From: a virus | Virus genome (UHGV): UHGV-0065784 | Strand: one strand, 5' to 3' | DNA length: 22,875 nucleotides | Shown here: positions 260 through 22,875 of the stretch, one piece after another | How the letters are laid out: each line of letters opens with the position of its first letter | Numbering within the stretch: position 1 is the first letter of the stretch | Notes under the pieces: model-generated | Database searches by the model: none | Seen by the model: only the letters and a program-made list of their open reading frames with translations | Told to the model about the DNA's origin: nothing | Translations under genes and position numbers: made by a program

Positions 260-470
260 CGGGAAGTCAGCGTGAGGGTTTCTGGCTACACTTTCTGCAA
301 ACAAGAAAGGAGGGCTCTTGACGGCTCCCCGCCCTGAATGACGGGGATTCCCACTTCAACAAGCCGAACCTAAGCCGCGTGCTGCGATTCAGGGTTTACA
401 GGCTCTCCGTGGGCTAACACTGCCAGCCCGGCAGCTTTAATATTACGTGCCGCGTTAATGTCGCGATCAT
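260..470 (-). ncRNA. Predicted omega-RNA (right-end RNA) region of the TnpB element, overlapping tnpB 3' end and downstream right end; extent not determined
   Basis: Established TnpB biology places the guide-RNA scaffold at the 3' end of tnpB and the right end; region contains several short stem-loops (291-309, 327-346). No folding or covariance model was run. Confidence 0.3.
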
Positions 471-1500
471 GGTCTGCGCCGCATTCAGGGCAGTGCCATT
501 TACGAACATTAAGAGGCATTTTTTGCATGGTGAAACCGCAGCAACTACAGCATTTTGAGGACGGTAAATACTGGTCAATGGCGACCACTGACCGCCCGGC
601 CCATTTGCCTTTGTACTGGAGCTGGCGAACAAGTTCGCTCCAGCCTGCGTCAGCTATTGCTTTAGACAGCTTCGGGTTGCGGATCATGTTTTTCACCTTG
701 AGGGATTCGACGCAAACAACTTGGTTTTCGTTAATCAGTTTGCGGGACAACTTGTGCAGATTGTCCATCCGGCAATCGGCGATTTTCGCGTGGAGTCGGG
801 CGACCTTTAAGCGGGCTTTAATTCGGTTTCTTGAGCCTTTTTGCTTCCTGCTTAAACGTCGCTGTAGCAGCGTTAATCGCTTCGCATATTTAGCGGTGTG
901 GCGGGGATTGTCGGTTTTGAATCCGGTATCGGTGACGAATAAATCTTTTAAGCCCACATCAATGCCGACCGTTTTAGCGGTAACAGGCATTGATACAGGT
1001 TCAAACTCACACAGGCAGGAAACAAAGTACCTGCCAGCGCTATCTCTGGAAATGGTAACGGTTGACGGCGCAGATGGTAATTCTCGACTCCAGCGAACAT
1101 CCAGCGGCGACTTGCTCTTTGCTATATACAACTCGCCGTCACGGTGTTTAAACGCGCTGGCAGTGAACTCAGCCACCTGTTTGTGCCGTTTGCTTTTGAA
1201 AGCCGGATATGCAGCTCGTCCGGCAAAGAAGTTAGCAAAGGCGGCTTGTTGGTGGCGCAACGACTGCTGGAGGGGAACGCAGGAAACATCATTCAGCCAT
1301 ATGTATTCAGGCTCTTTTTTGAGCGCCGTAAGGCGAGCGTTGGCCTGTAGATAACCGATCTTTTCTTTTCGCTCGTAGTACGCATCGGTACGCCAACGAA
1401 GGATGGAATTGTAGACGAAGCGCACACAGCCAAACGTCTGAGCTAAAAGCTCAGCCTGCTCAGTTGTCGGGTAAAACCGGTATTTATATGCGCGTTTCAT
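370..1500 (-). CDS. tnpB: TnpB (IS605 OrfB-family RNA-guided nuclease, RuvC-like plus zinc finger)
   Basis: 376-aa ORF; N-terminal OrfB-type region, RuvC-I-like GIDVGLKD, RuvC-II-like VVCVESL, zinc finger CCSCCG...CPECG, RuvC-III-like HDRDINAARNI; catalytic D/E/D positions appear intact. Confidence 0.9.
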   Translation of the reverse strand: MKRAYKYRFYPTTEQAELLAQTFGCVRFVYNSILRWRTDAYYERKEKIGYLQANARLTALKKEPEYIWLNDVSCVPLQQSLRHQQAAFANFFAGRAAYPAFKSKRHKQVAEFTASAFKHRDGELYIAKSKSPLDVRWSRELPSAPSTVTISRDSAGRYFVSCLCEFEPVSMPVTAKTVGIDVGLKDLFVTDTGFKTDNPRHTAKYAKRLTLLQRRLSRKQKGSRNRIKARLKVARLHAKIADCRMDNLHKLSRKLINENQVVCVESLKVKNMIRNPKLSKAIADAGWSELVRQLQYKGKWAGRSVVAIDQYLPSSKCCSCCGFTMQKMPLNVRKWHCPECGADHDRDINAARNIKAAGLAVLAHGEPVNPESQHAA

Positions 1501-1608: not shown

Positions 1609-2085
1609 ATGAAACTCATCAGTAACGATCTGCGCGATGGCGATAAGCTGCCGCATCGTCATGTCTTTAACGGCATGGGTTACGATGGCGATAATATTTC
1701 ACCGCATCTGGCGTGGGATGATGTTCCTGCGGGAACGAAAAGTTTTGTTGTCACCTGCTATGACCCGGATGCGCCAACCGGCTCCGGCTGGTGGCACTGG
1801 GTAGTTGTTAATTTACCCGCTGATACCCGCGTATTACCGCAAGGGTTTGGCTCTGGTCTGGTAGCTATGCCAGACGGCGTTTTGCAGACGCGTACCGACT
1901 TTGGTAAAACCGGGTACGATGGCGCAGCGCCGCCGAAAGGCGAAACCCATCGCTACATTTTTACCGTTCACGCGCTGGATGTAGAACGTATTGATGTCGA
2001 TGAAGGTGCCAGCGGCGCGATGGTCGGGTTCAACGTTCATTTTCACTCTCTGGCGAGTGCCTCGATTACTGCGATGTTTAGTTAA
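1609..2085 (+). CDS. ybhB: PEBP-family (kinase-inhibitor-like) protein YbhB
   Basis: 158-aa ORF with GGAGG 7 nt upstream of ATG; sequence matches my recollection of E. coli YbhB (MKLISNDLRDGDKLPHRH...), PEBP-like motifs. Confidence 0.9.
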   Translation: MKLISNDLRDGDKLPHRHVFNGMGYDGDNISPHLAWDDVPAGTKSFVVTCYDPDAPTGSGWWHWVVVNLPADTRVLPQGFGSGLVAMPDGVLQTRTDFGKTGYDGAAPPKGETHRYIFTVHALDVERIDVDEGASGAMVGFNVHFHSLASASITAMFS

Positions 2086-2190: not shown

Positions 2191-2330
2191 TGAACAAGAA
2201 ACAGTAAAAAACATTAATATCAATGTGTTATGAAGATTTTTGTCTAAATAATAGACTACATAATACTGCAAAACACAGCATGTGCAGTCACTATGAATCA
2301 ACTACTTAGATGGTATTAGTGACCTGTAAC
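2191..2330 (-). promoter_or_regulatory. attP P-arm remnant with Int arm-type binding sites (lambda-like)
   Basis: Reverse complement reads ...CTGTTACAGGTCACTAATACCATCTAAGTAGTTGATTCATAGTGACTGCA..., near-identical to the lambda P arm as I recall it; arm-type motifs GCAGTCACTATG (2284-2295) and AGGTCACTAAT (2315-2327); sequence nearer the core is more diverged from lambda. Confidence 0.7.
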
Positions 2331-2533
2331 AGAGCATTAGCGCAAGGTGATTTTTGTCTTCTTGCGCTAATTTTTTGTCATCAGAACATATCGCACTCCA
2401 GAGAAGCACAAAGCCTTGTGTGTCTCATAGGCTATGAAACAATCATTTTACATGGTTACTTCACTACTTCCGCACAATATGATATCGTTCACAATCTAAA
2501 AATATTAATAATTTATCCATTACCGCGGTTAAT

Positions 2534-2559
2534 GCCCGTCGCTTCCAACGGGCTTTTTT
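2534..2559 (+). terminator. Rho-independent terminator, likely the tI/sib-region remnant of a lambda-like b-region
   Basis: gcccgt-cgcttcca-acgggc stem-loop followed by TTTTTT on the plus strand; lies in lambda-like sequence beyond the P arm, where lambda has tI. Confidence 0.5.
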
Positions 2560-2705
2560 GTAAATTATATTTTTATTACCTTATATTAATATTGGTAATA
2601 TGTCTGCATGATGTTTTATATTTAATTTCGTTGACGTCAATATTTTTTGCCAATGTACTTACTTCTTTATGTGAGCAGTTCATATTTTTGACGCCAACGA
2701 AACAT

Positions 2706-5651
2706 TTAGTGCTTCCCTTCTATTAAGTCTAACCTAGCTTTTATTCTTTCTATTTCTCTGCGCTGCCATGCCGCCTCGATATAGAATAAGAGATCAGGTC
2801 TGACCCCCCATCTAGATCCTGCTGGCGTTATTTCAACGCGCTCAATGATGTCTTCCATTACCATCACTGGATTATCATCCTCATCAACAATGATGCTCCC
2901 GTCATTATCAGTCAGCGGCATTTCCCTTTGGCCAGTAATGACGTCATCATATACTGCGGGATAATCGTCATAGCAAAGAAAGGCATAGCGGCATGTTGTG
3001 CTTTCTTCTTCCATGAGTCCGTGAGAAATAAGAACATCACGAAGTTGCTGCGCGATTACACCATGATGTATCCTCGCCCCTTCTTCCCCCTTTATAGCGA
3101 CAGCGTTCAGCCATTTATAAGCGATATACCTGACGTCACCCCAGGCATCCAGCAATGCTTCGTCAGGAGAGACCGGCTCTGTCTTTAATGTTCCGTCACT
3201 GGTAATCACAGGATTGGAGCCAAGATAAACTGTCGAGAACCTGTTTCCCGGACCACCAAGAGCATTTACATTATCAAGATAAGGTTTAACATCTCCGTTC
3301 TCAAAAAGATGTTCGAGTGCGTTATATACCGCGCGACGTGGAGTACTGCTTCCGGAACCATGCAACGTTATCATTGCACCATCTGCTGAAGACGTTGTTT
3401 CACCTCCGCTAACGATTAATCTCTGAGCGGTAACATCATCAGACGGTACTTTCTTCGCAATAATGGCGTAATTACCCTCAAGTTTGACTTCCGCGCGAAC
3501 TTGTCCTGATGTACCTGCATGGACAGTCAGTGACTGGACGGCAACATCATCTGTGAAATCAACGGGTACAGGAACCGTCCTCACGCCTGACGTCGACATA
3601 AAAGTAGGAAGCGTTCTGTTAGGAGTGGCTCCGTAGACAAAATCCCTTGAAACAAATTCTTCCTGTTTAATTTTCACCCTGAAACAATACAAATCAGCCG
3701 GGTGACCATCGTGAACATAAGGATATTTTCTGTTGTTATCCCCTATGCTCCATGGGTTTAGAAAGTCTTCCCCACCGAAAATGTAGTACAGCCAGTTGTC
3801 TTTGATACAAACTGAACCAACACCAACCGCAGAGTTAACTATTCCGCCCTGATAAATCTGATCAGTAACATTAACCCACTCTACATTATCCAGACTCCAC
3901 TCATTGACGTTAACTCTGGTCATAAATGTTCTTGGATAATTTCCTGCATAACGGTTATCAGGTTCTCCTCCTTCCCACTCACCAAATGCGCGCTCACTGC
4001 CAAAAATAATCAGCTCATCGCCAACTTTGGCAAAAGGAAGGTTTGAGTGATGAACATTATTTGGGAAGCGAAGAGAATTCCATGATGTACCTAAATCAGA
4101 GCTTCTGTGCAATGAACTACCGGGTTGAGTACTTAATGTCCCCCTGGTCGTCAGATACAGAATGCCATCATAATATTTTACACATGGCTCAGATGCATTC
4201 GCCTCATATTCTACAGGTATGCGTCTGCGAACAAAGCTACCAGGAGAACCGAAAGCATCAGAGAAATAGAGTATCCCAAGCTCGCGTGGATCAATATCAC
4301 CATTATGGTAGCCAACAGCAAAACTGTTATCGCTAATCGTCGCAAAACTGTGAATCTCAGTAACAGGAGTGCTTCCGTCAACAAAAGAAGGAATAGTTCC
4401 AAGACTGGTTTTTCTCCATGGTGACGAGTGAAATGATGTACCAAAACTCCAGTATCTACCCTCGTTATTCTGATCCACATCCTGGGTATTTTGCGTCGTA
4501 ACTGTAAAAGTATTTTTATCAATAACAGTAGTCACCGTCATATTCCCGGTAACACCTGTAACACCAGAGTTTGAGAAGTTGACAAAATCACCAGCAAATA
4601 ATCCGTGATCAGTAATGCGAATATAAGCGACTTGCTGATTTGCTGCTTTCGTTATACCACCATAAACGCGAAGGCTGCGACTCATTGGGCGATCCCACAA
4701 CTCTGCAACCTGCAGTTTATTTCCGCTCACGGTCCGCGTCTCAATTACAGCAAAAAGGCGATTTCTGACAACCCCCATACTCATGCAGTGATAGTTAACT
4801 GTGGGATAGTTTTCATGTAAATCTGTAAGCCATTCCGGCGTTGTCCAGGTCTTCCCGTCATCTCCTGAGCGAACCCATGCAACATGGAGGTTATTTACAC
4901 CATGGCGGTCTCCAGCCATAAAAGGCGCATAGATGACATTGTCATATACAAACGTTTTATCCTGCGTCCAGGCGTTGTACCACGGTGTATCTGTAATTTT
5001 AAATAACTCTCCCTGGATAAAATCTTCAGAAGCATAAAAAAGAGGCTGACCCGGTATTCTCTCAAATAAAAAACGAGCATTTTTAAATCGACTGACATCT
5101 GGAAGAGTTGATACTTTAAAAGTAAGCCCTCGCCCATCTATCTTTTCACCACCTGTTGCAACAGAAAGTAATTCTGATAGAGCTGATGTGTCATCATGAA
5201 CACCATCACCAATAGCCCCCCAACCTCTTACATCATAACTGTCTCTCCATCTTGCTATCTGAAGTTTTGGGTATTTATTCGCTCCATCTGGGTCTTCTAA
5301 TTGCTGCCGTAACTGATCAGGATCATACTTCAGCACATTAGGAAAATAGAACTGCTGCGCACCATACGCATCATAAACAGCCATAGAATGGCCTTGCACG
5401 GTAACGAATTTGGCAATCTGTCCGTTATATACCGGATATCCAGCAGCGTTAATGATTATTGGTTGCGAAACAGGAATGTGAGAACCGTCTTCGTTCTCTA
5501 CATAAACCTGAATCTGGTTTTCAGGATTTACCGGGTCAGTGTCAATTTTACCGATATAAATTTTGCCATTGGCTACGGCTTTAAAAGAACGCGCCATAGT
5601 GAAGAGTTGCGAAGGCATACTCACTACAACATTGGCTGTAATGTCTGTCAT
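2706..5651 (-). CDS. Tailspike: P22-like N-terminal particle-binding domain, sialidase-like (Asp-box) receptor-degrading domain, C-terminal intramolecular chaperone (S74-type) domain; probable endosialidase
   Basis: 981-aa ORF; N-terminus [43 protein letters not shown]... closely resembles the P22 gp9 head-binding domain; Asp-box motifs SGDDGKTW and SSDLGTSW; C-terminal ~150 aa resemble self-cleaving chaperone domains of endosialidase-type tailspikes; GGAG RBS 8 nt before ATG. Confidence 0.85.
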
Positions 5652-6335: not shown

Positions 6336-6356
6336 GCCGGGTCACTCCGGCTTTTT
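6336..6356. terminator. Putative bidirectional terminator between convergent genes
   Basis: gccgg-gtcact-ccggc stem followed by TTTTT on plus strand and AT-rich on the other side; overlaps the last codons of the minus-strand gene. Confidence 0.45.
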
Positions 6357-6707
6357 GATATGTCGCTCGCAGAACTCAACAAGCCTGCTCATTAAGTAGC
6401 AGTAAGTCTCGTTGGCTCTTCCTGGTTCAACATCAACACCTACCCTTGAGCAGATATCGAATGCCATGTGAGCGCACTCATGGGCAATAGTAGATAGTTT
6501 GCCATTGAACACGCCTATCACATGCAAAACACCATTCTCGCTACTCATTGTATGAGACGCTCCGTTGGCGTCCGAGTCATGCACGTCAACGCCAAGTTTT
6601 TGATGCAGGCGTTGCCATTCTGGAAAGTCTCTACAAAACACAATTGTACCGCTCTCAAAGAGCGGAACGAGCATCTTTGGTACGTTTCCAATGTTAACTT
6701 TTTTCAT
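6342..6707 (-). CDS. Small HExxH protein, possible ImmA/IrrE-like (M78-type) mini metallopeptidase
   Basis: 121-aa ORF with AGGA 4 nt before ATG; motif HECAH followed about 20 residues later by [13 protein letters not shown], reminiscent of the HExxH...E-x-N-x-FA...LL signature of ImmA/IrrE peptidases; family assignment is from motif memory only. Confidence 0.6.
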
Positions 6708-6737
6708 GGTATCCTGCGCAAAACTAAGGAGGTTGGT

Positions 6738-7232
6738 GTGTCTGATTCTATGAGTTACGCTGTGCTAGTTGCCGCAACTCTATTTCTGGGGATAGGGTTG
6801 CAGATTGCGTGGTTCTTTTTTTCTAGTTTTATTAAACGTAAAAGAATTGAATCAAGGATATCTGAGATTTCTATTGCTATAGGGAAAAATGCTGAAAATC
6901 CAGAGAATGAGGCCTGCGCACTGAATTACCTTAAAGAAAAGTTTTCCCCTGAAAAATTTGAAAACAGAATTACTGATGCTCTTGGATTGGTAATATCAGT
7001 AATTCATATGCCACTAAGTTTGCTGATAACAGTGTGGTACTTCGCCATGATCGCCGGAAGAATATTTGGTTTCATGAATATAGAGCCTGTAGTTCTTTGG
7101 GTTCCAATGATACTGCAATTGTTGTTAAGCGTTGCTATCTTTATTTTTTCTGTTTTTATAAAAATTGTCTTCGGAAGATACCCCGGAGAAGCGAAGGGAT
7201 TTAATAAAGAATTCATAAAAACTATAAAATAA
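6738..7232 (+). CDS. Inner-membrane protein with three predicted TM helices at the sieA position of P22-like phages (candidate superinfection-exclusion protein)
   Basis: GTG start at 6738 preceded by AAGGAGG (6726-6732, 5-nt spacer); hydrophobic segments [75 protein letters not shown]; AT-rich; opposite orientation to late genes, between gp16 and mnt as sieA is in P22. No sequence match to SieA could be checked. Confidence 0.65.
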
Positions 7233-7254: not shown

Positions 7255-9096
7255 CTACTGCCGGGTAGCTTCGTTAACTAAGAGCGGGCGCACGGCAGTA
7301 GCCGCCTGATTTAGCGCTCTTTCATAAGCTGGCGTTCCAGCTTTAGTGTTTGCCAGACGTAAGAGCGCATTCCTTGCTGCTTTGGATTCATACAAGCGCA
7401 TCATTGCACCGAAACCAGCCTCAAGCCCCATTGATACGCCAAGAGTCGTAGTTGCGCCAATCGTCCTTATCCTGTTGGCTTGCGATTGCCCCGTCTGAGT
7501 TACTACATTTGCGGTGTCTGATCTTGCTGCTTGCTGTAGAACTTCATGAAGAGCATCAAGTTCTTTCATGTGCTTTCCAGAAAAAATAGTGTTGTAAATT
7601 TCACCGCCTGACTGAGATTTCAGCTTATTAACTTCAGTGATGAACTTGGCTGGAGAGTCACCGGCCTTTTCCGCTATTTTGCTGACGTAAGCTGCACGCA
7701 TAGCATCTTTCCCTTTATCATCAAGTGCGCTCCAGATTCGTTTCACGTCAGATGGTTTTCTGCTTAATACAACGGTATTTATAAGTTCAGGACTGGCTTC
7801 ACTGCTTGCCTTGTTGAGCTTGTTAGCAATGTTTTTATTAAGCACCTTATTATAAACGTTTGCATAATCGGAATTTGCTTTAAGGTATTTTGCTGCGTCT
7901 GAAGCACCGAGGTTTTTGGCAACTGCGTTACGAAGGTCTTTTGACATTGCATTCTCTACCATATTGGTAGCTGCTTTTGCCTGGTTGGGGAAGACCATGG
8001 CATCTCCCTGAACATTAGATCTAAATGCTGTTCTGTGCTGGCGCAAGAGATCAAACGTAACATCCAAATCAGTTGCAGGGTTTGCTAATTCTTCACGTAG
8101 GTTACGCAAGGATGTAAGCAGGTTTTGATTGGCAGAAGTCCCAAGCCGTTCCTGTCTTGCGATCGCTGTATTCAGAGCATTCATGGTATTTGTGGTATCA
8201 ACTGCGGCATTACCCATTTTATTGGTGACGTCATTGATAACAGCGCCAGCGGCATCCTTCCGTCCCCTTAACGTGGTGGTCAGAGATCTCACCACATCAT
8301 CAGGGTTGTACTCACCAAAACGGTCAAAATAATTGCTTACCAGCTTACTACGCGTTGCATATTGCTCCGCTCGCTTTGAGCCTGTCCCGAGCAAAGCCCC
8401 CTCAGCATCTTGAGTAAGTCCGCGAGTGAAAGCATTTTTCGGCGGGATAACATCAGATGTCATTGGTGTCACGCCCATCGATTCTGATGTGGCAATTTTC
8501 TTTGCCACTTCTGGCGCAATATCACCTTTTATAGCCGTTATTCCACGCCCTATTCCCTTTGCTGCTGCGGAAAGAACACCCTGAGCGGCAAGGTTAACTC
8601 CGGCATTTTTAGCTGCATTTTGTGCGAAATCACCTTTCTGATTTGCGGCCTCTGCCAGTGATCCAATAGCCATGCTTCCTGCCGTTCCAACTCCTGGAAC
8701 TAAATACCCGCCAATTGTTTCTCCAGCTTGAGCGTAGGGGTCTGTCGGTCTGTCTACTGGACGATAAACATCATCCAAAACCTTGGGGCCACCAAGCCCC
8801 GGACTGATTGCATTAATCAGACTTGCGCCGCCCTGTAATACGTCAAATGGTATGTTTACCAGACCACGACCAGCCTGTTCTGCAATTTGCCCTGCACTTT
8901 GACCACCAGTGAGCCAATCGCCAGCTTGTTGCATCAATGATGGTTCTTCCCGTGTTGGTGCATTATTGGCCTGATTAACTGTTTGTTGCTGAACAGCCTG
9001 ACCAGCAAAATACTCATCAATGGCGGTGCCAATATCTTCCGTGCTCGTACCATCAGGGAAGGTAAATGTCTTACCGTTTGCAGTTACTTTCATCAT
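7255..9096 (-). CDS. Ejection (injection) protein, P22 gp16-like
   Basis: 613-aa ORF; N-terminus [30 protein letters not shown] resembles P22 gp16 from memory; last gene of the ejection-protein trio; 4-nt overlap with upstream gene. Confidence 0.8.
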
Positions 9097-18859: not shown

Positions 18860-20272
18860 TTACCAACCGGAGGATGAGGGAACGTATATTTCTGTTTCTT
18901 CGCGGACCAATGCCGGGCAATGCATACACATCATCAGCGCATCAGCCAGGTTAGGAGATGGAATACCGAGCTTCTGCTTCATTTCGACCTTAGTCATAAG
19001 CTCCAGCTTCCCGTTGTTATTGAATTTGCGCTGAATCTGCGTAAGTTCTGCAAACAGCTTCTCCAGCATCTTCTCGCCTATCGCTTCTTTGTCGAAACTC
19101 AGCATGTCGTCTGGGTCTGCATACTCACCGTGAACAACCGCCCGATATGTCAGATACAGCCTGTCAGCCAGCGCGTAATAGAATTGCGCTCGCTTATTGC
19201 GGAATACATCGCCAATAGTGCGAACGTTGTCGCCATGTACGACTTCATCAGCCCATGCTCCGGCCTGATAAGGCGCATCTTCATCGAATGGCGATTCGCT
19301 GCCCTTAAACATCGTGGCGGTGATTTTCTTACCGGAGAATGCTTCCGTTGTCTGTCTGCGTAGCCCGGCACCAACACCATCACCATCCCACAGGTAATGG
19401 TCAGCACCGTCTTCAATCGCCAGCGAAGTAGCCCAGTCAGCACCCTCGTTGATGTCCATCAGCAGACCTTCGGCAATGCGCTTAACCACCGAACCGTGAC
19501 GCGATGCGTAACCTTTAGCATCTGGCCCTGTATCTGACGGGTCATGTGCAGAAACAACAGCGCCTTTCGCTTTCCATCCGAGTTTCTTGTGCACATCGGT
19601 TGCGGCTTCAAGCCATTCACGTTTGATGATTGCCATATCACTTGCGCTTACTGGCTCACCAAGCCAGATATGACGATACAGTGTCGGATTTCTGCGTTTG
19701 CACTCTTCCATCTCCAGACGGAGAACTTCAGGAAAGTGCGGGTTGTCGGTGTAGTTCACCGTCAGCAGACAAATATCATCGGGAGGATTTACGACGAATC
19801 GCTGATAGGTATCGTCGAGTATGTTCTTCGGGTTAAAGCTCACCCATATTTCGGAAAACGGCTTGCGGATGGTTGGTATCAGGATATCCCATGATTCCTT
19901 CGTTACCGCTTCCGCTTCTTCCACCCAGCAGATATCAATACCTTCGAGCGATTTAATCTTCGTCGGGTTGTTTTTGATGCCGTAGAACATGAATTCAGCA
20001 TTCGTTCCTAGATGACGAATCATTGAACGCTGAATTTCAAACTCAGCCGAATACCCTTCCCGCTCTATGGTGTCTTCAAGCAACCGAATTACCGAATCGC
20101 TGATACTGTTTTGCAGCTCACGAGCGCAAAGTATGCGCACAGGCTGCCGACGCGCCGCTTCAACAAGCAGCCTAGCAATTGCCCATGACTTACCGCTACC
20201 TCGACCGCCTTTGGCGACTTTGTAGCGATGCGCCTCAATGAACGGTTCAAAGATAGGATTAATCGAGGTCAT
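18860..20272 (-). CDS. Terminase large subunit
   Basis: 470-aa ORF; Walker A KGGRGSGKS near the N-terminus; nuclease-domain acidic residues; ATGA overlap with TerS. Confidence 0.95.
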   Translation of the reverse strand: MTSINPIFEPFIEAHRYKVAKGGRGSGKSWAIARLLVEAARRQPVRILCARELQNSISDSVIRLLEDTIEREGYSAEFEIQRSMIRHLGTNAEFMFYGIKNNPTKIKSLEGIDICWVEEAEAVTKESWDILIPTIRKPFSEIWVSFNPKNILDDTYQRFVVNPPDDICLLTVNYTDNPHFPEVLRLEMEECKRRNPTLYRHIWLGEPVSASDMAIIKREWLEAATDVHKKLGWKAKGAVVSAHDPSDTGPDAKGYASRHGSVVKRIAEGLLMDINEGADWATSLAIEDGADHYLWDGDGVGAGLRRQTTEAFSGKKITATMFKGSESPFDEDAPYQAGAWADEVVHGDNVRTIGDVFRNKRAQFYYALADRLYLTYRAVVHGEYADPDDMLSFDKEAIGEKMLEKLFAELTQIQRKFNNNGKLELMTKVEMKQKLGIPSPNLADALMMCMHCPALVREETEIYVPSSSGW

Positions 20273-20694
20273 TTTCCGAATAGAGTGCTCATCGGTGATG
20301 TTTCAATCTGGATTGCGCCGCCGTCCTTACCGACAAGCTCGTTAGTTACCTTGTCGCCATACTTACGGGGATTCATTCGGGCCAGCGCCCATTTGCGGGT
20401 ATCAACGCGAAGTCTTGCCTTTGCCACCTCAGCAGCATCTGGAATCGCAGTGTCAGCAATTTCGAATATCTCTTCGAAAATAGAATCAGCTCGTGCCTCA
20501 GTTGCCTTCGCGTACTTGTCTCTAAATTCGTCATGCTCTGACAGCCAGCGAAATACAGTAGCCTTTGCTGGCATGCCGGGGCGCTTGCAAACCTTAACCA
20601 GACTTTCCCCGGAGGCAAGCAGCGCACAGATATCATCAGCCACCTCCGGCAGGTAATCCGAAGGGCGACCGACATTCTTTTTCTCAGTCGCCAT
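20269..20694 (-). CDS. Terminase small subunit, Sf6 gp1-like
   Basis: 141-aa ORF MATEKKNVGRPSDYLPEVADDICALLASGESLVKVCKRPGMPAKATVFRWL..., very close to my recollection of Sf6 gp1. Confidence 0.9.
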   Translation of the reverse strand: MATEKKNVGRPSDYLPEVADDICALLASGESLVKVCKRPGMPAKATVFRWLSEHDEFRDKYAKATEARADSIFEEIFEIADTAIPDAAEVAKARLRVDTRKWALARMNPRKYGDKVTNELVGKDGGAIQIETSPMSTLFGK

Positions 20695-20773: not shown

Positions 20774-21016
20774 TTATGCTCCGGTAGTGAACAGATCTAA
20801 CGCTTCCTTCGATTTACGCACCGCTTCGATAGTTCGGGTCGTGATATCTGAATTAGCGCCACCTGACTGGAAGTGAATTTTGAATAGCTCAAGCTTCAAC
20901 TCGTCAGTGCCGATGAATTGAAATGCTTCTTCTGCGGCTGCGTTCTGGTTCATGACCAGCTTGTAAATCTCTAACTGGAATTTCTGTTCTTCAGTCATGG
21001 GGGTAATCTCTACCAT
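20774..21016 (-). CDS. Hypothetical acidic 80-aa phage protein
   Basis: ORF with GGAG RBS 6 nt upstream of ATG; no family recognised. Confidence 0.6.
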   Translation of the reverse strand: MVEITPMTEEQKFQLEIYKLVMNQNAAAEEAFQFIGTDELKLELFKIHFQSGGANSDITTRTIEAVRKSKEALDLFTTGA

Positions 21017-21119: not shown

Positions 21120-21419
21120 CTACTGTTCGCTTAGCTTCTGCTTCAGCAAGTAACCTTCGAGCATCCAGATTTTGTTTACAGCATTCTGCCGGGCAATCTT
21201 CCGACCAATTTCTGCATCAAAGTTTTCCGGGCTTGCACAGGCACTCTCCCCGGTGACGGTGAAGCCATTCTTCAGCACCAGTACGCAGAAAGTGAGCAAC
21301 TTCAATGGTGATAAATCACGATCGCCTTCTTCTGGTTTTTCCCTGCCACAATATTCGTTGCTGGAAATGGCACCATTTCGTCCATCATAAGCAGTAAAGT
21401 AATGCTCGCTTTTAATCAC
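21120..21419 (-). CDS. Gp49-like (N4 Gp49 / Sf6 gene 66 family) protein; probable true start at ATG 21501 with an apparent frameshift in a T6/A6 run
   Basis: C-terminal region LTFCVLVLKNGFTVTGESACASPENFDAEIGRKIARQNAVNKIWMLEGYLL matches my recollection of this family; the frame is open and protein-like for 26 codons upstream of the GTG called by the ORF track. Confidence 0.65.
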   Translation of the reverse strand: MIKSEHYFTAYDGRNGAISSNEYCGREKPEEGDRDLSPLKLLTFCVLVLKNGFTVTGESACASPENFDAEIGRKIARQNAVNKIWMLEGYLLKQKLSEQ

Positions 21420-21734
21420 GTCTTCGATGTGCTGCGGGGTGATTCGCGGTGCCGTTTTGCCTTTCTCAACGATTTCTTTTTTCGATTTGATGGTTGTTCA
21501 TAATTATGACCCTGTAGAGTAGTTGCTTGATTAGGATGTCTTTCCATCAGTCCGCCACCACAAAGAATCTTTTTTGCCATAAGGCTGGAGGTTCATCTTT
21601 CAGTGGCTGCCAGTGTTATTTCCCCACTTACTGGCTTGGGTTGCTTCGTGGTACTGCCGTAACTGGTTGCCAAGAATAAATTCCGGTTTCATTATCAAGC
21701 CCACCCGTAGATGGGCTTTGTAATGCCTACATGG

Positions 21735-22214
21735 TTAAATGATTTGCCAGTCTTCAGCCATCAGGTCGCCAATGGATGGAACCCATGTAGCAAGGCGGCT
21801 CTGTGAGTTTTTCAATACAAGCGTGTCATTGAAAGTTGGCTCGCCAACATATTCGCCAAAGCCATAACCCAACGCAGACGCTAATTTTTCCCCTTTCACG
21901 AGATAAACAAACTGGTCTTTCCCATTCCATCCTGCCCGCTGCAAACTTTTGCCCTGTTTTAACGCTTCCATGGCAAGGCCGAAACTTAGTCCTGATACCG
22001 GACGATAAGCCTTTTCGAATACTTCTTTTGGACTCCAACTAACGTAGCCATCAAAGCGATCGGTGTTAGGTTTTCCGCCATCCAGATATTCAACCAGATA
22101 GCCTTCGTCCTCGCCGTTTTCTCCGGCAGGAAGCTGCCAGCCACGAAAATCGTTATATGCCTGTCTCGTCATCGGAAAGGCGTTAATCAGTTTTACGCCA
22201 ATATGCTGGGTCAT
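21735..22214 (-). CDS. Two-part protein whose C-terminal half resembles DUF2829 (Tad2-type anti-Thoeris sponge family)
   Basis: 159-aa ORF; C-terminal motifs FGLAMEALKQGKSLQRAGWNGKDQFVYLV and ...WVPSIGDLMAEDWQII resemble what I remember of DUF2829; located between the lysis cassette and terminase, a typical moron site. Confidence 0.6.
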   Translation of the reverse strand: MTQHIGVKLINAFPMTRQAYNDFRGWQLPAGENGEDEGYLVEYLDGGKPNTDRFDGYVSWSPKEVFEKAYRPVSGLSFGLAMEALKQGKSLQRAGWNGKDQFVYLVKGEKLASALGYGFGEYVGEPTFNDTLVLKNSQSRLATWVPSIGDLMAEDWQII

Positions 22215-22434
22215 AAAATTACCTATGGAGTTGGGAATAAAAAGCCCCGCGAATGCGAGGCTAAATCCTGGTTTTGTGATGACTGGCTCTTATCTCAACG
22301 CAGCCCCTTACCGCGCGCCAGATGCTCAATATCAAGCATCAGCAATGAGATATTTAATCTGGATTCACTCCAGAAGTGATCACCACCCTGTCTACAGAGC
22401 CAGATGTGAAGGATGATGAGTAAAATTATCGCTA

Positions 22435-22875
22435 TCATCGAAGGCATTGCGTCCTGATGTACTCCTGAAGCGTTCTCAGTGCTGTTTGGTCGCGGATAAT
22501 TCCGTCCCGGACACCGAGAACGTTTCGTCCAGCAACTGGAGAGAGTTCGACGGTGGCATCATTGCCCATGCCGGAGGCGCTGGAGGTTTCGGCTGAGGAT
22601 GGCACAGGGCATTTTCCTTTGACGAGCACCCTGCCACCATTATCAAGCTTGCGCCGAAGAGCATCATTTTCAGCTTTCGCATCAGCTAACTCCTTCGTGT
22701 ATTTAGCATCGAGTGCATCAGCAGTACGCTGGCGCTGCTGCATGTCAGTAATGGTGGCGGCCGCCTGCTTCAGCTCACTGACTTTTTTATCTCGCTGTTC
22801 TTTGTAGGCGATGGCGTTATCACGGTAGTGATTAACAGCCCATGACAGGCAAACGATGATGCAGATAACCAGAGC
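22435..22875 (-). CDS. Rz: Rz i-spanin, 5' end beyond window
   Basis: Frame is open to the window edge; peptide ...[33 protein letters not shown]... matches lambda Rz closely; N-terminal TM segment visible in translation of 22744-22875. Confidence 0.85.
22476..22682 (-). CDS. Rz1: Rz1 o-spanin lipoprotein, embedded in the +1 frame of Rz
   Basis: 68-aa [24 protein letters not shown]... with lipobox VAGC and proline-rich stretch [11 protein letters not shown], like lambda Rz1. Confidence 0.8.

Follow-up and report, generated by a model that had tools for sequence, protein, structure and literature searches.

With moderate confidence we favour the reading that the gene at positions 21735-22214 of the viral genome UHGV-0065784, here analysed as a window of 22,875 nucleotides, encodes a late-expressed phage counter-defence protein of two modules, in which a C-terminal Tad2 sponge is combined with an N-terminal accessory module (N-module) that dimerises. 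The gene lies where the original prediction had placed it, and the strand, which that prediction had not given, is the minus strand; the coding sequence runs from an ATG start to a TAA stop and is the longest open reading frame at the locus. The gene, its modules, its putative expression signals and its neighbours are as follows:

21735-22214, minus strand: complete gene of the two-module protein, 159 amino acids plus stop codon, with the N-module ahead of the Tad2 domain (open reading frame list, translation)
21993-22214, minus strand: N-module, residues 1-74, beta-rich, sponge-associated, a homologue of the RyR-Tad (CB1 gp68) N-terminal domain
21735-21992, minus strand: predicted sponge domain of the Tad2 type (PF11195/DUF2829), covering residues 75-159 and the stop codon (Pfam, PDB homology)
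22221-22224, minus strand: Shine-Dalgarno-like AGGT, 6 nt upstream of the ATG, read from the minus-strand sequence
22243-22262, minus strand: terminator-like hairpin of 8 pairs (6 G-C) followed by TTTTTATT (consensus scan)
22435-22875, minus strand: Rz i-spanin (PF03245, E=3.1e-22), with its start about 27 nt past the end of the window; length from an identical prophage
22476-22682, minus strand: Rz1 (PF06085, E=3.8e-21), embedded in Rz, at the end of the lysis cassette and upstream of the two-module gene
21120-21501, minus strand: Acb4-family gene (PF13876, Gp49/Sf6 gp66; Pfam E=1.3e-31), frameshifted
20269-20694, minus strand: Sf6-type small terminase (PF20901, E=1.8e-44), the downstream edge of the accessory slot
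18860-20272, minus strand: large terminase (PF04466, E=3.2e-41), following the small terminase

The original prediction had described the C-terminal half as a DUF2829/Tad2-like candidate anti-defense sponge on account of its motifs, and all the stretches that it quoted, MTQHIGVKLINAFPMTRQAYNDFRGWQLPAGENGEDEGYLVEY, EALKQGKSLQRAGWNGKDQFVYLV and DLMAEDW, are present in the translation. Residues 77-159 score 77.2 bits on PF11195 (cut-off 25, E=1.5e-21) over profile positions 2-73 of 73, and the C-terminal part alone gives E=8e-22. A phmmer search of the PDB retrieved SPO1 Tad2 (8SME, E=1.7e-25) in an ungapped alignment with 47% identity, and further Tad2 structures, ModTad2 (9EIB) and 8V3E, were matched at about 1e-17. 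In the AF2 model of the domain (pLDDT 90.6) the elements follow one another as alpha1 (residues 78-86), beta1 (91-93), beta2 (102-106), alpha2 (108-114), beta3 (131-135), beta4 (141-143), alpha3 (148-152) and beta5 (156-158), with pLDDT values of 83-94. Compared by the order of secondary structure, this topology agrees with the published description of Tad2, which comprises an N-terminal helix, a five-stranded antiparallel sheet and short helices in the beta2-beta3 and beta4-beta5 loops. The entire protein is 100% identical to RefSeq WP_106832620.1 from E. coli genomes and matches phrog_872 over its full length (E=5.9e-69). The phrog_643 "transcriptional regulator" was matched as well (E=7.9e-5), but only by the Tad2 domain and much more weakly than Tad2 itself, and this identity was rejected. 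A lack of DUF2829 similarity in HMM or structure, named beforehand as a ground for refuting the prediction, is clearly contradicted by these results. Judged by sequence, the C-terminal half is a further member of the known Tad2 family, which has thousands of members, and RefSeq already names the protein "DUF2829 domain-containing protein".

The residues that hold the ligand argue that the domain is also very likely to work as a signal sponge. In SPO1 Tad2, gcADPR is bound by W25, N26, W73 and D79, while S76 coordinates water (bioRxiv 10.1101/2023.05.01.538930). All five core positions are kept as W96, N97, W144, D150 and S147, respectively, and each is conserved in 73-75 of 75 two-module homologues, so that the original reading of this half as a candidate sponge appears to be the right one. 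By contrast, the peripheral adenine and water contacts are not kept, with L134, N136, Q138, A142 and G149 in place of SPO1 I63, T65, D67, H71 and T78, the last of which hydrogen-bonds the adenine (bioRxiv 10.1101/2023.05.01.538930). The N-Q-G state of the pocket rim is a discrete minority, seen in 11 of the 75 homologues, against 32 with T-D-T. Such peripheral contacts are not a family-defining feature of Tad2. Since Tad2 relatives bind His-ADPR, N7-cADPR, cUMP or cyclic dinucleotides, the rim changes T65N, D67Q, H71A and T78G may reflect an altered ligand specificity; gcADPR rather than His-ADPR or N7-cADPR nevertheless seems the likely main ligand. The beta2-beta3 insertion is 24 residues long, as it is (24-26 residues) across most of the subfamily, and because it is short, a cyclic-dinucleotide pocket of the HgmTad2 type is disfavoured and inhibition of CBASS by that route would not be expected.

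The host element is a P22-like E. coli prophage, in which genes for the Q antiterminator, holin, endolysin, Rz, the two-module protein, an Acb4-family protein, DUF2560 and terminase follow one another on one strand. The gene thus occupies, as originally described, a site between Rz/Rz1 upstream and the Sf6-type small and the large terminase downstream. The consensus scan returned no promoter-like site on the minus strand, and the terminator-like hairpin between the small post-Rz open reading frame and the two-module gene is a pattern match only, three such sites having been found where 2.1 are expected by chance. In lambdoid phages Q antitermination lets late operons read through terminators. 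Since the gene shares the strand of the late operon, is flanked by lysis genes on one side and head genes on the other, and has no promoter-like site of its own, its product is probably made alongside the structural proteins under Q antitermination.

The location had also been taken as a common slot for accessory genes, which holds for the position, while the content of the slot can be described more closely. PF13876 corresponds to Acb4 (bioRxiv 10.1101/2024.12.30.630793), and because the neighbouring Gp49/Sf6-gp66 gene belongs to this sponge family, the slot is by its gene content a small anti-signalling islet and not the site of a lone accessory gene. A separate Acb4 or Sequestin gene was found nearby in 32 of 80 related viral loci. 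The reading frame of the Acb4-family gene is shifted by +1 at a stretch of six A residues (21477-21482), at which phage Huey has five in the alignment, so that the longest intact open reading frame (21120-21419) starts with GTG and codes for 99 residues. Deletion of one A in silico brings the frame back to 126 residues, 124 of which are identical to an intact 126-residue RefSeq homologue; the frameshift may stem from an error in sequencing, or the protein may genuinely be shortened to 99 residues.

The N-terminal 70 or so residues had been called an extension that makes the protein about twice the usual size. That they form a separate part is correct, and the protein is indeed long relative to the 89 residues of SPO1 Tad2; however, the two-domain form of about 160 residues is itself common, with nearly all of the best 120 database clusters measuring 154-170 residues at full coverage, and the N-terminal part is a discrete, autonomous and widespread module rather than an idiosyncratic extension. 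Modelled alone, residues 1-74 give a pLDDT of 95.3 and a pTM of 0.81, with a five-stranded beta-sheet (strands 2-5, 9-14, 38-43, 57-62 and 71-72) and two helices. Pfam has no match to these residues, but they align over their full length with the gp68 N-domain (residues 1-74 in hhalign, with 97.1% probability and E=5.3e-11; BLASTP 34% identity, E=8e-6), sharing the motifs K-x3-A-x-PM, EGYLV-Y and Y-SWSP-x2-F. A profile search found the module in 2,856 representative clusters, counted at 50% identity, from phages of Proteobacteria, Bacteroidota (crAssphage) and Clostridia (Firmicutes). Almost no variation is seen at about 30 of its 74 positions, among them R17, R24, N21, N50, W26, W60 and several tyrosines, and with a mean identity of 68%, versus 55% for the Tad2 domain, it is the more conserved and slower-evolving half.

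The N-module is either encoded alone or joined to Tad2, Sequestin, Acb4, RyR-Tad, Lockin or Acb2/Tad1, and almost never to other partners. A census of 145 representatives counted 49 fusions to Tad2, 40 to Sequestin, 16 to Acb4 and one to an Acb2/Tad1 hairpin; RyR and Lockin fusions also occur, and in triple fusions, for example Acb4-Nmod-Sequestin or Nmod-Sequestin-Tad2, the module is one bead of a string. It is likewise present, unremarked, in the published homologue tables of Sequestin, Acb4 and Lockin. Free-standing genes encode 73-78 residues. One, in Erwinia phage phiEaP8, lies in the N4-like anti-signalling hotspot adjoining the vRNAP gene; another is found among genes for ribonucleotide reductase, glutaredoxin and PhoH, and a third follows an endolysin gene, with no sponge neighbours seen at the latter two loci. 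Two seemingly free-standing copies in IMG/VR proved to have C-terminal partners, and a search for recurrent new partners among 50 unassigned segments yielded mostly singletons or frameshifted fragments of Tad2 or Acb4.

Several identities were considered for the N-module and rejected. Loosely parallel RGW and W-x-P-helix motifs had prompted the idea of a cryptic Tad2 duplicate, but the best Foldseek match in the PDB, SPO1 Tad2, reaches only E=1 with a TM score of 0.37, and profile-profile comparison gives a probability of 1%. Lockin is reported to be absent from INPHARED genomes and to form elongated hexamers, TadIV-1 is a helical dimer confined to Straboviridae, and the RyR repeat is the C-terminal and not the N-terminal domain of gp68; Acb5 was also discarded. 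A fold search with the N-module matched no known sponge, and DUF1653, its closest solved fold, has no sequence or profile similarity to it.

By analogy with SPO1 Tad2, the C-terminal module would form a homotetramer and, in pockets between its protomers, enclose alarm molecules that TIR proteins make from ADP-ribose, most likely 1''-3' and 1''-2' gcADPR; this capture would keep the Thoeris effector off. The N-domain of gp68 forms a strand-swapped dimer in which beta1 is donated to the partner, and it is inactive alone against type I Thoeris (bioRxiv 10.64898/2026.06.04.730250), for which reason the N-module is most likely a dimerising accessory module that would tie Tad2 protomers or tetramers together. 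It is likely, by this homology, to dimerise through a strand swap here as well, while it is possible but doubtful that dimerisation is its sole role: the free-standing genes, the higher conservation than in the sponge domain and the many invariant polar and aromatic residues speak against a purely structural module, as does the ability of Tad2, Acb4 and Sequestin to form oligomers in its absence.

A further role could be that of a second sponge, with the N-module itself binding a small molecule, so that two immune signals and hence two pathways would be blocked at once, much as in the known fusions of Acb4 with Tad2 or with Sequestin. We regard this as rather unlikely, although the guilt-by-fusion logic by which Sequestin was discovered applies to a module fused almost only to sponge domains, triple fusions included, and although one of its free-standing copies sits in the phiEaP8 hotspot. 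The spread over phages of Proteobacteria, Bacteroidota and Clostridia is easier to reconcile with a universal ligand than with a host-specific protein, and the large share of near-invariant positions and the slow evolution relative to Tad2 fit a binding function. However, type I Thoeris was not counteracted by gp68_N, the sole homologue with an experiment, and in gp68 ligand density has been reported only for the C-terminal domain. The N-module has a net charge of -3, whereas known sponge pockets are positively charged; moreover, where the module is encoded alone, other sponge genes do not visibly cluster around it, and neither a fold match to known sponges nor profile similarity to Tad2 was detected. 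Alternatively, the module might mask sponges from Panoptes-type depletion guards, or bind a conserved host or defence protein as Tad3-Tad8 do. Sponges, among them the Acb4 of N4, trigger Panoptes and thereby create selective pressure for an add-on, and the N-module is found with sponges of unrelated structure, which would suit a generic accessory. This explanation is entirely inferential, and its host-protein version is at odds with the conservation across very distant host phyla, so that we consider it improbable.

Two other explanations concern the gene as a whole and appear still less probable than a masking or host-directed module. A decaying or non-expressed prophage remnant might be suspected from the frameshift in the adjoining Acb4-family gene, from the terminator-like hairpin just upstream and from the rarity of the gene, which 45 of 5,426 complete E. 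coli genomes carry. Yet the open reading frame is intact and 100% identical to copies elsewhere, 22 genomes carry it at at least 99% nucleotide identity, all functional residues and a Shine-Dalgarno-like sequence are kept, and Q antitermination carries the late operons of lambdoid phages through terminators, which makes an inert passenger very improbable. The least credible candidate is inhibition of type II-A CRISPR-Cas9 in the manner of AcrIIA7. The CRISPR systems in E. coli hosts of P22-like phages are of type I-E or I-F and are not known to be of type II-A. The idea draws on the annotation of the homologue Huey CDS0064 as an "anti-CRISPR protein" and on a weak similarity to AcrIIA7 chains (E=1.7e-5 over about 34 residues), which is confined to the shared DUF2829 helix and loop. 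According to two studies, DUF2829 proteins sequester gcADPR, and Cas9 inhibition was not reproducible.

The Tad2 half is ordinary, adding one more P22-like coliphage to the family, and the value of the protein lies in the N-module, the most frequent sponge fusion partner found, which is joined to six sponge families and is present in the model phages N4 and crAssphage. Fusion partners of known sponges have twice led phage sponge research to new families, and the one N-module experiment found in the literature, on one homologue and one defence system, was negative. We tentatively raise the idea that residues 1-74 represent a very large, unrecognised family of phage anti-signalling domains with a conserved target of its own, which could be a not-yet-assayed immune or decoy nucleotide or a component that senses sponge activity. 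If so, the protein described here, N4 gp49 and hundreds of entries in published tables listed as "Sequestin", "Acb4" or "Tad2" would be two-pronged inhibitors, and the N-module could serve as bait for further sponge families among the unidentified fusion partners. To decide between an oligomerisation device, a new sponge and a Panoptes shield would clarify how multi-target immune inhibitors are built, and it bears on engineered or therapeutic coliphages that face Thoeris- and CBASS-bearing hosts.

Among known systems, the closest counterpart of the C-terminal 85 residues is SPO1 Tad2 (Gp34.65; 8SME/8SMF/8SMG, 8WJE), the founding member of PF11195/DUF2829, with which they share the ungapped alignment, the order of secondary structure, a 24-residue beta2-beta3 insertion and the residues W25, N26, W73, S76 and D79. 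SPO1 Tad2 differs in lacking the 74-residue N-module, at the four rim positions given above and in its setting, since SPO1 is a lytic myovirus of Bacillus, whereas the present gene belongs to the late operon of a temperate P22-like phage of E. coli. HgmTad2, SptTad2 and MoTad2 fall into the same Pfam family and have the same gcADPR-site architecture. However, HgmTad2 and SptTad2 bind cyclic dinucleotides via an insertion of 35-41 residues between beta2 and beta5, as compared with 24 here and in SPO1 Tad2, which has no such insertion domain. MoTad2 binds His-ADPR and cUMP, and ModTad2 is more distant (E=8e-18).

With regard to the N-module, RyR-Tad, which is gp68 of Pectobacterium phage vB_PatP_CB1 (bioRxiv 10.64898/2026.06.04.730250), likewise places a homologous module ahead of a gcADPR-type sponge domain, but this domain has an all-helical RyR-repeat fold instead of Tad2, and RyR-Tad is a dimer, while Tad2 proteins are tetramers. 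The gp68 module is also a short-loop variant without the GGKPN loop, so that its properties may not transfer to the N-module of the present protein. In multi-sponge fusions, such as Acb4-Tad2 of Pasteurella phage Pm86 and Acb4-Sequestin of Pseudomonas phage Ab09 (gp59), small anti-signalling domains are similarly strung together in one polypeptide, and the N-module occurs inside such strings; in the Pm86 and Ab09 fusions every domain is a proven sponge, whereas the N-module has no known ligand. The architecture of the present protein recurs in phage N4 gp49 (ABK54417.1, 160 residues), for which the literature searched holds no functional study and which combines an N-module with PF11195 (E=8e-24) at 47% overall identity. 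Although the N4 slot is an N4-like anti-signalling hotspot beside the vRNAP gene and the gene order is reversed, gp49 also adjoins a PF13876/Acb4 gene, whose product, gp48, is an experimentally validated sponge.

The ORF predicted between Rz/Rz1 and the terminase genes (21735-22214, minus strand; no longer ORF lies in that stretch) contains every motif string originally quoted for it and has AGGT 6 nt 5' of its ATG. It encodes an N-terminal module (residues 1-74, "N-module") and a Tad2 domain (residues 75-159), and the same-strand gene order agrees with the proposed location:

22435 onward, minus strand: Rz/Rz1, the start of Rz lying just past the window end
22295-22447, minus strand: conserved 50-aa hydrophobic ORF (phrog_11822, E=3.9e-38), overlapping the end of Rz and followed by the Tad2 gene
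22262-22243, minus strand: terminator-like hairpin of 8 pairs (6 G-C), then TTTTTATT, directly 5' of the Tad2-fusion gene (pattern match only)
22214 (ATG) to 21735 (TAA), minus strand: N-module-Tad2 ORF, 159 codons
21768-21809 region, minus strand: rim residues 136, 138 and 149 of the Tad2 domain
between the Tad2-fusion gene and the Gp49/Sf6-gp66 gene, minus strand: two tiny ORFs
21120-21419, minus strand: Gp49/Sf6-gp66 family gene (PF13876, Acb4 family)
20774-21016, minus strand: DUF2560 gene (PF10834, E=9.8e-44)
20269-20694, minus strand: Sf6-type small terminase
18860-20272, minus strand: large terminase

RefSeq lists the phrog_11822 ORF as a hypothetical protein, and in phage Kapi1 it is labelled a signal-peptide protein. 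A scan of the minus strand from Rz to the terminase genes gave no sigma-70-like site, and the terminator-like hairpin, located inside the expected late operon, may serve in the lysogen to insulate the accessory genes. The gene order is unchanged in an E. coli chromosome that carries a 100% identical copy, where the Q antiterminator, holin and endolysin come first. The remainder of the window holds a P22-like virion module, whose tailspike is an endosialidase, and two left-end genes described below, and the nearest phages belong to Lederbergvirus (Huey, Kapi1, IME10, HK620 and Sf6). Since the N-module-Tad2 gene is rare among complete E. coli genomes (45 of 5,426) compared with the neighbouring Gp49/Acb4 gene (1,263), the fusion is sporadic cargo of this slot.

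The Acb4-family gene (21120-21501, minus strand) carries a +1 frameshift, with A6 at 21477-21482 instead of the A5 of Huey and the closest E. coli prophages. Translation from ATG 21501 stops after 11 codons, and the longest intact ORF begins with GTG at 21419, without the first 27 residues. Deletion of one A yields a 126-aa protein, 124/126 identical to the intact WP_000999674.1; the extra A may stem from a sequencing error in the homopolymer, or the gene may really be inactivated or truncated. The DUF2560 gene lies in the accessory slot too, between the sponge genes (sponges being phage proteins that sequester bacterial immune signal nucleotides) and the small terminase, has conserved counterparts in Sf6, HK620 and many relatives, and because of its neighbours is a candidate for another counter-defence gene. 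The tailspike (2706-5651, minus strand) combines a P22-type head-binding domain with a complete endosialidase (beta-propeller, beta-barrel, stalk and S74 chaperone), and the prophage therefore targets a polysialic-acid (K1-type) capsule; the 138-aa plus-strand ORF at 2310-2726 overlaps the 3' end of this gene by 21 nt. Past the tailspike, the left end of the window holds two genes that may belong either to prophage-end cargo or to flanking host DNA:

370-1500, minus strand: IS605-family OrfB/TnpB-like gene (OrfB_IS605 and Cas12f1-like TNB domains)
1609-2085, plus strand: phosphatidylethanolamine-binding-protein (PEBP) gene

Four ORFs of 121-613 aa had no Pfam match: 2310-2726 (plus), 6342-6707 (minus), 6522-7232 (plus) and 7255-9096 (minus).

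The DUF2829/Tad2 similarity claimed for the C-terminal half was recovered by HMM search, with residues 77-159 spanning the whole PF11195 profile ("Thoeris anti-defense 2-like") at 77.2 bits (E=1.5e-21; cut-off 25 bits). The top PDB-sequence matches are the SPO1 Tad2 depositions 8WJE and 8SME (E about 1.7e-25), followed by ModTad2 (9EIB) and 8V3E (about 1e-17), and the alignment with SPO1 Tad2 is ungapped over 85 residues at 47% identity. Structure prediction concurs, as the Tad2 part of the AF2 model (pLDDT 90.6) has its helices and strands in the order published for Tad2. The beta2-beta3 segment comprises 24 residues, as in SPO1 Tad2, whereas a 35-41-residue segment creates the cyclic-dinucleotide pocket of HgmTad2 and SptTad2. 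In SPO1 Tad2, W25 and W73 make van der Waals contacts to 1''-3' gcADPR, N26 and D79 make polar ligand contacts, T78, I63 and T65 contact the adenine, and D67, H71 and S76 coordinate water (bioRxiv 10.1101/2023.05.01.538930). When the two proteins are aligned, the core ligand positions are identical (W96, N97, W144, D150 and S147 in the window protein; conserved in 73-75 of 75 full-length homologues), and the remaining contact positions are L134, N136, Q138, A142 and G149. Across the 75 homologues, rim positions 136/138/149 co-vary as discrete states, among them T-D-T in 32 sequences (the SPO1 state) and N-Q-G in 11 (the window state), a pattern that suggests sub-clades differing in ligand preference. 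Because the core residues are kept, the fold order is the published one and the beta2-beta3 segment is short, the domain is placed in the Tad2 family and predicted to be a gcADPR-type sponge, and it is very probably a working one. The ligand prediction is qualified by the range of ligands shown for Tad2 relatives (His-ADPR, N7-cADPR, cUMP or cyclic dinucleotides) and by the N-Q-G state of the rim, which may signal altered specificity. The Tad2 half is thus a further member of a known family, already labelled DUF2829 in RefSeq. The anti-CRISPR label on the phage Huey homologue derives from AcrIIA7, whose Cas9 inhibition could not be reproduced.

The N-terminal ~70 residues, originally singled out as an extension, are indeed a separate part, which folds alone and occurs widely as an autonomous module. 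Residues 1-74 have no Pfam match, either alone or across 48 homologues, and are modelled by AF2 with pLDDT 95.3 and pTM 0.81 as beta-beta-alpha-beta-beta-alpha-(beta). Foldseek returned no solved structure resembling the module (best, SPO1 Tad2, E=1, TM 0.37), and profile comparison gave no sequence relationship to DUF1653 (0.2%) or Tad2 (1%). A profile search of 1.84 billion representatives retrieved 2,856 clusters with E<=1e-3, of which 1,355 reach E<=1e-10, with the module at the N-terminus, C-terminus or middle of 76-354-aa proteins. It is present in 137 deposited phage genome records, from coliphages, phages of Vibrio, Klebsiella, Pseudomonas, Rhizobium, Acinetobacter and Clostridium, and crAssphages. 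When the module alone was the query, the hits included true stand-alone genes of 73-78 aa as well as proteins in which it is fused to PF21825 or to another tail.

Most informative are the fusion partners. PF13876 (N4 Gp49/Sf6 gp66) is the Acb4 family of anti-CBASS sponges (bioRxiv 10.1101/2024.12.30.630793, one of two 2024-2025 papers), and PF21825 (crAss001_48) is Sequestin, an anti-Thoeris sponge family discovered through its fusion to Tad2 and Acb4 (2024-2025 papers). Among 145 module-bearing representatives from the best 150 of the 2,856 clusters, a sample skewed towards sequences closely related to the query profile, Pfam partners were Tad2 (49), Sequestin (40), Acb4 (16), the Acb2/Tad1 hairpin domain (1) and the non-sponge domains WDGH, AP2 and HNH (1 each). 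Within the same census, iterated HMMs built in this analysis resolved 151 sequences as follows.

Architectures of N-module (Nmod) proteins
Nmod-Tad2: 42/151
Nmod-Sequestin: 24/151
Nmod alone: 12/151
Nmod-Acb4: 5/151
Nmod-RyR: 1/151
Nmod and unassigned tail: 30/151

Triple strings such as Acb4-Nmod-Sequestin and Nmod-Sequestin-Tad2 were also seen, and many of the unassigned tails resemble fragments of Tad2 or Acb4 that have undergone frameshifts. Independently, a BFVD fold search recovered the module from a Yersinia phage protein labelled with a ryanodine-receptor domain; PHROG 9467 and prototype crAssphage gp41 are both N-module plus Acb4. The module's motif occurs, without comment there, in 94 entries of the published Sequestin homologue table, 37 of 1,331 published Acb4 homologues and 2 published Lockin homologues, and is absent from the tested-candidate table and the supplementary files examined from the 84-sponge screen. 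A literature search found no paper noting the module across sponge families; Tad3-Tad8 lay outside the comparison, and identity with one of them is possible.

The analysis directly establishes that the core pocket of the Tad2 domain is intact, that the separate N-module has a homologue which dimerises by strand swapping, and that the gene lies on the late-operon strand adjoining an Acb4-family gene, a pairing that recurs in phage N4. The protein would be made late under Q antitermination, alongside the structural proteins; a 2026 preprint, the one that names the N4-like anti-signalling hotspot, mentions the capsid as an implicated trigger of type I Thoeris. Its Tad2 domains would form tetramers sequestering gcADPR-type signals, and its N-modules would pair via strand swap. 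It is doubtful that pairing is the whole function of the module, and a solely structural role is held only tentatively. That the module is a second sponge, binding something itself, seems rather unlikely, but this alternative stays alive because in the same 75 proteins the module is more conserved than the adjoining sponge domain (mean pairwise identity 68.2% vs 54.9%; higher in 81% of 2,775 pairs), almost no variation is seen at about 30 of its 74 positions, many of which are polar or aromatic, and free-standing copies exist. Against it, the module has a net charge of -3, and in RyR-Tad (gp68 of Pectobacterium phage vB_PatP_CB1) gp68_N (1-86) is apparently inactive against type I Thoeris, whereas gp68_C suffices alone (bioRxiv 10.64898/2026.06.04.730250). 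A shield or protein-binding role is very improbable.

In a metagenomic phage contig (4001-4222) a free-standing copy lies between class II ribonucleotide reductase and glutaredoxin, and in crAssphage (1-1950) a module-Acb4 fusion adjoins two thioredoxin genes and a DUF1653 gene; these repeated redox/nucleotide-metabolism surroundings may be coincidence. Of 80 related viral loci, 32 have a separate Acb4 or Sequestin gene. In Erwinia phage phiEaP8 a free-standing module occupies the slot adjoining the vRNAP gene, named the N4-like anti-signalling hotspot in the 2026 preprint.

To our knowledge, the module-Tad2 architecture has been characterised nowhere. It is shared with phage N4, whose gp49 (160 aa) is N-module plus Tad2, as in the window gene, and adjoins gp48, an Acb4 protein that has been validated experimentally:

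2109-2962 of phage N4 EF056009.1 (GenBank record): gp49/gp48 region

The naming is a trap, in that the PF13876 (Acb4) protein of N4 is gp48 despite the Pfam name "N4 Gp49". In the gp68 crystal the N-domain is domain-swapped, beta1 completing the partner's five-stranded sheet and aiding dimerisation (bioRxiv 10.64898/2026.06.04.730250). The window module is a homologue of this N-domain (hhalign 97.1%, E=5.3e-11; BLASTP 34% identity), which is a short-loop variant without the GGKPN loop of the window module.
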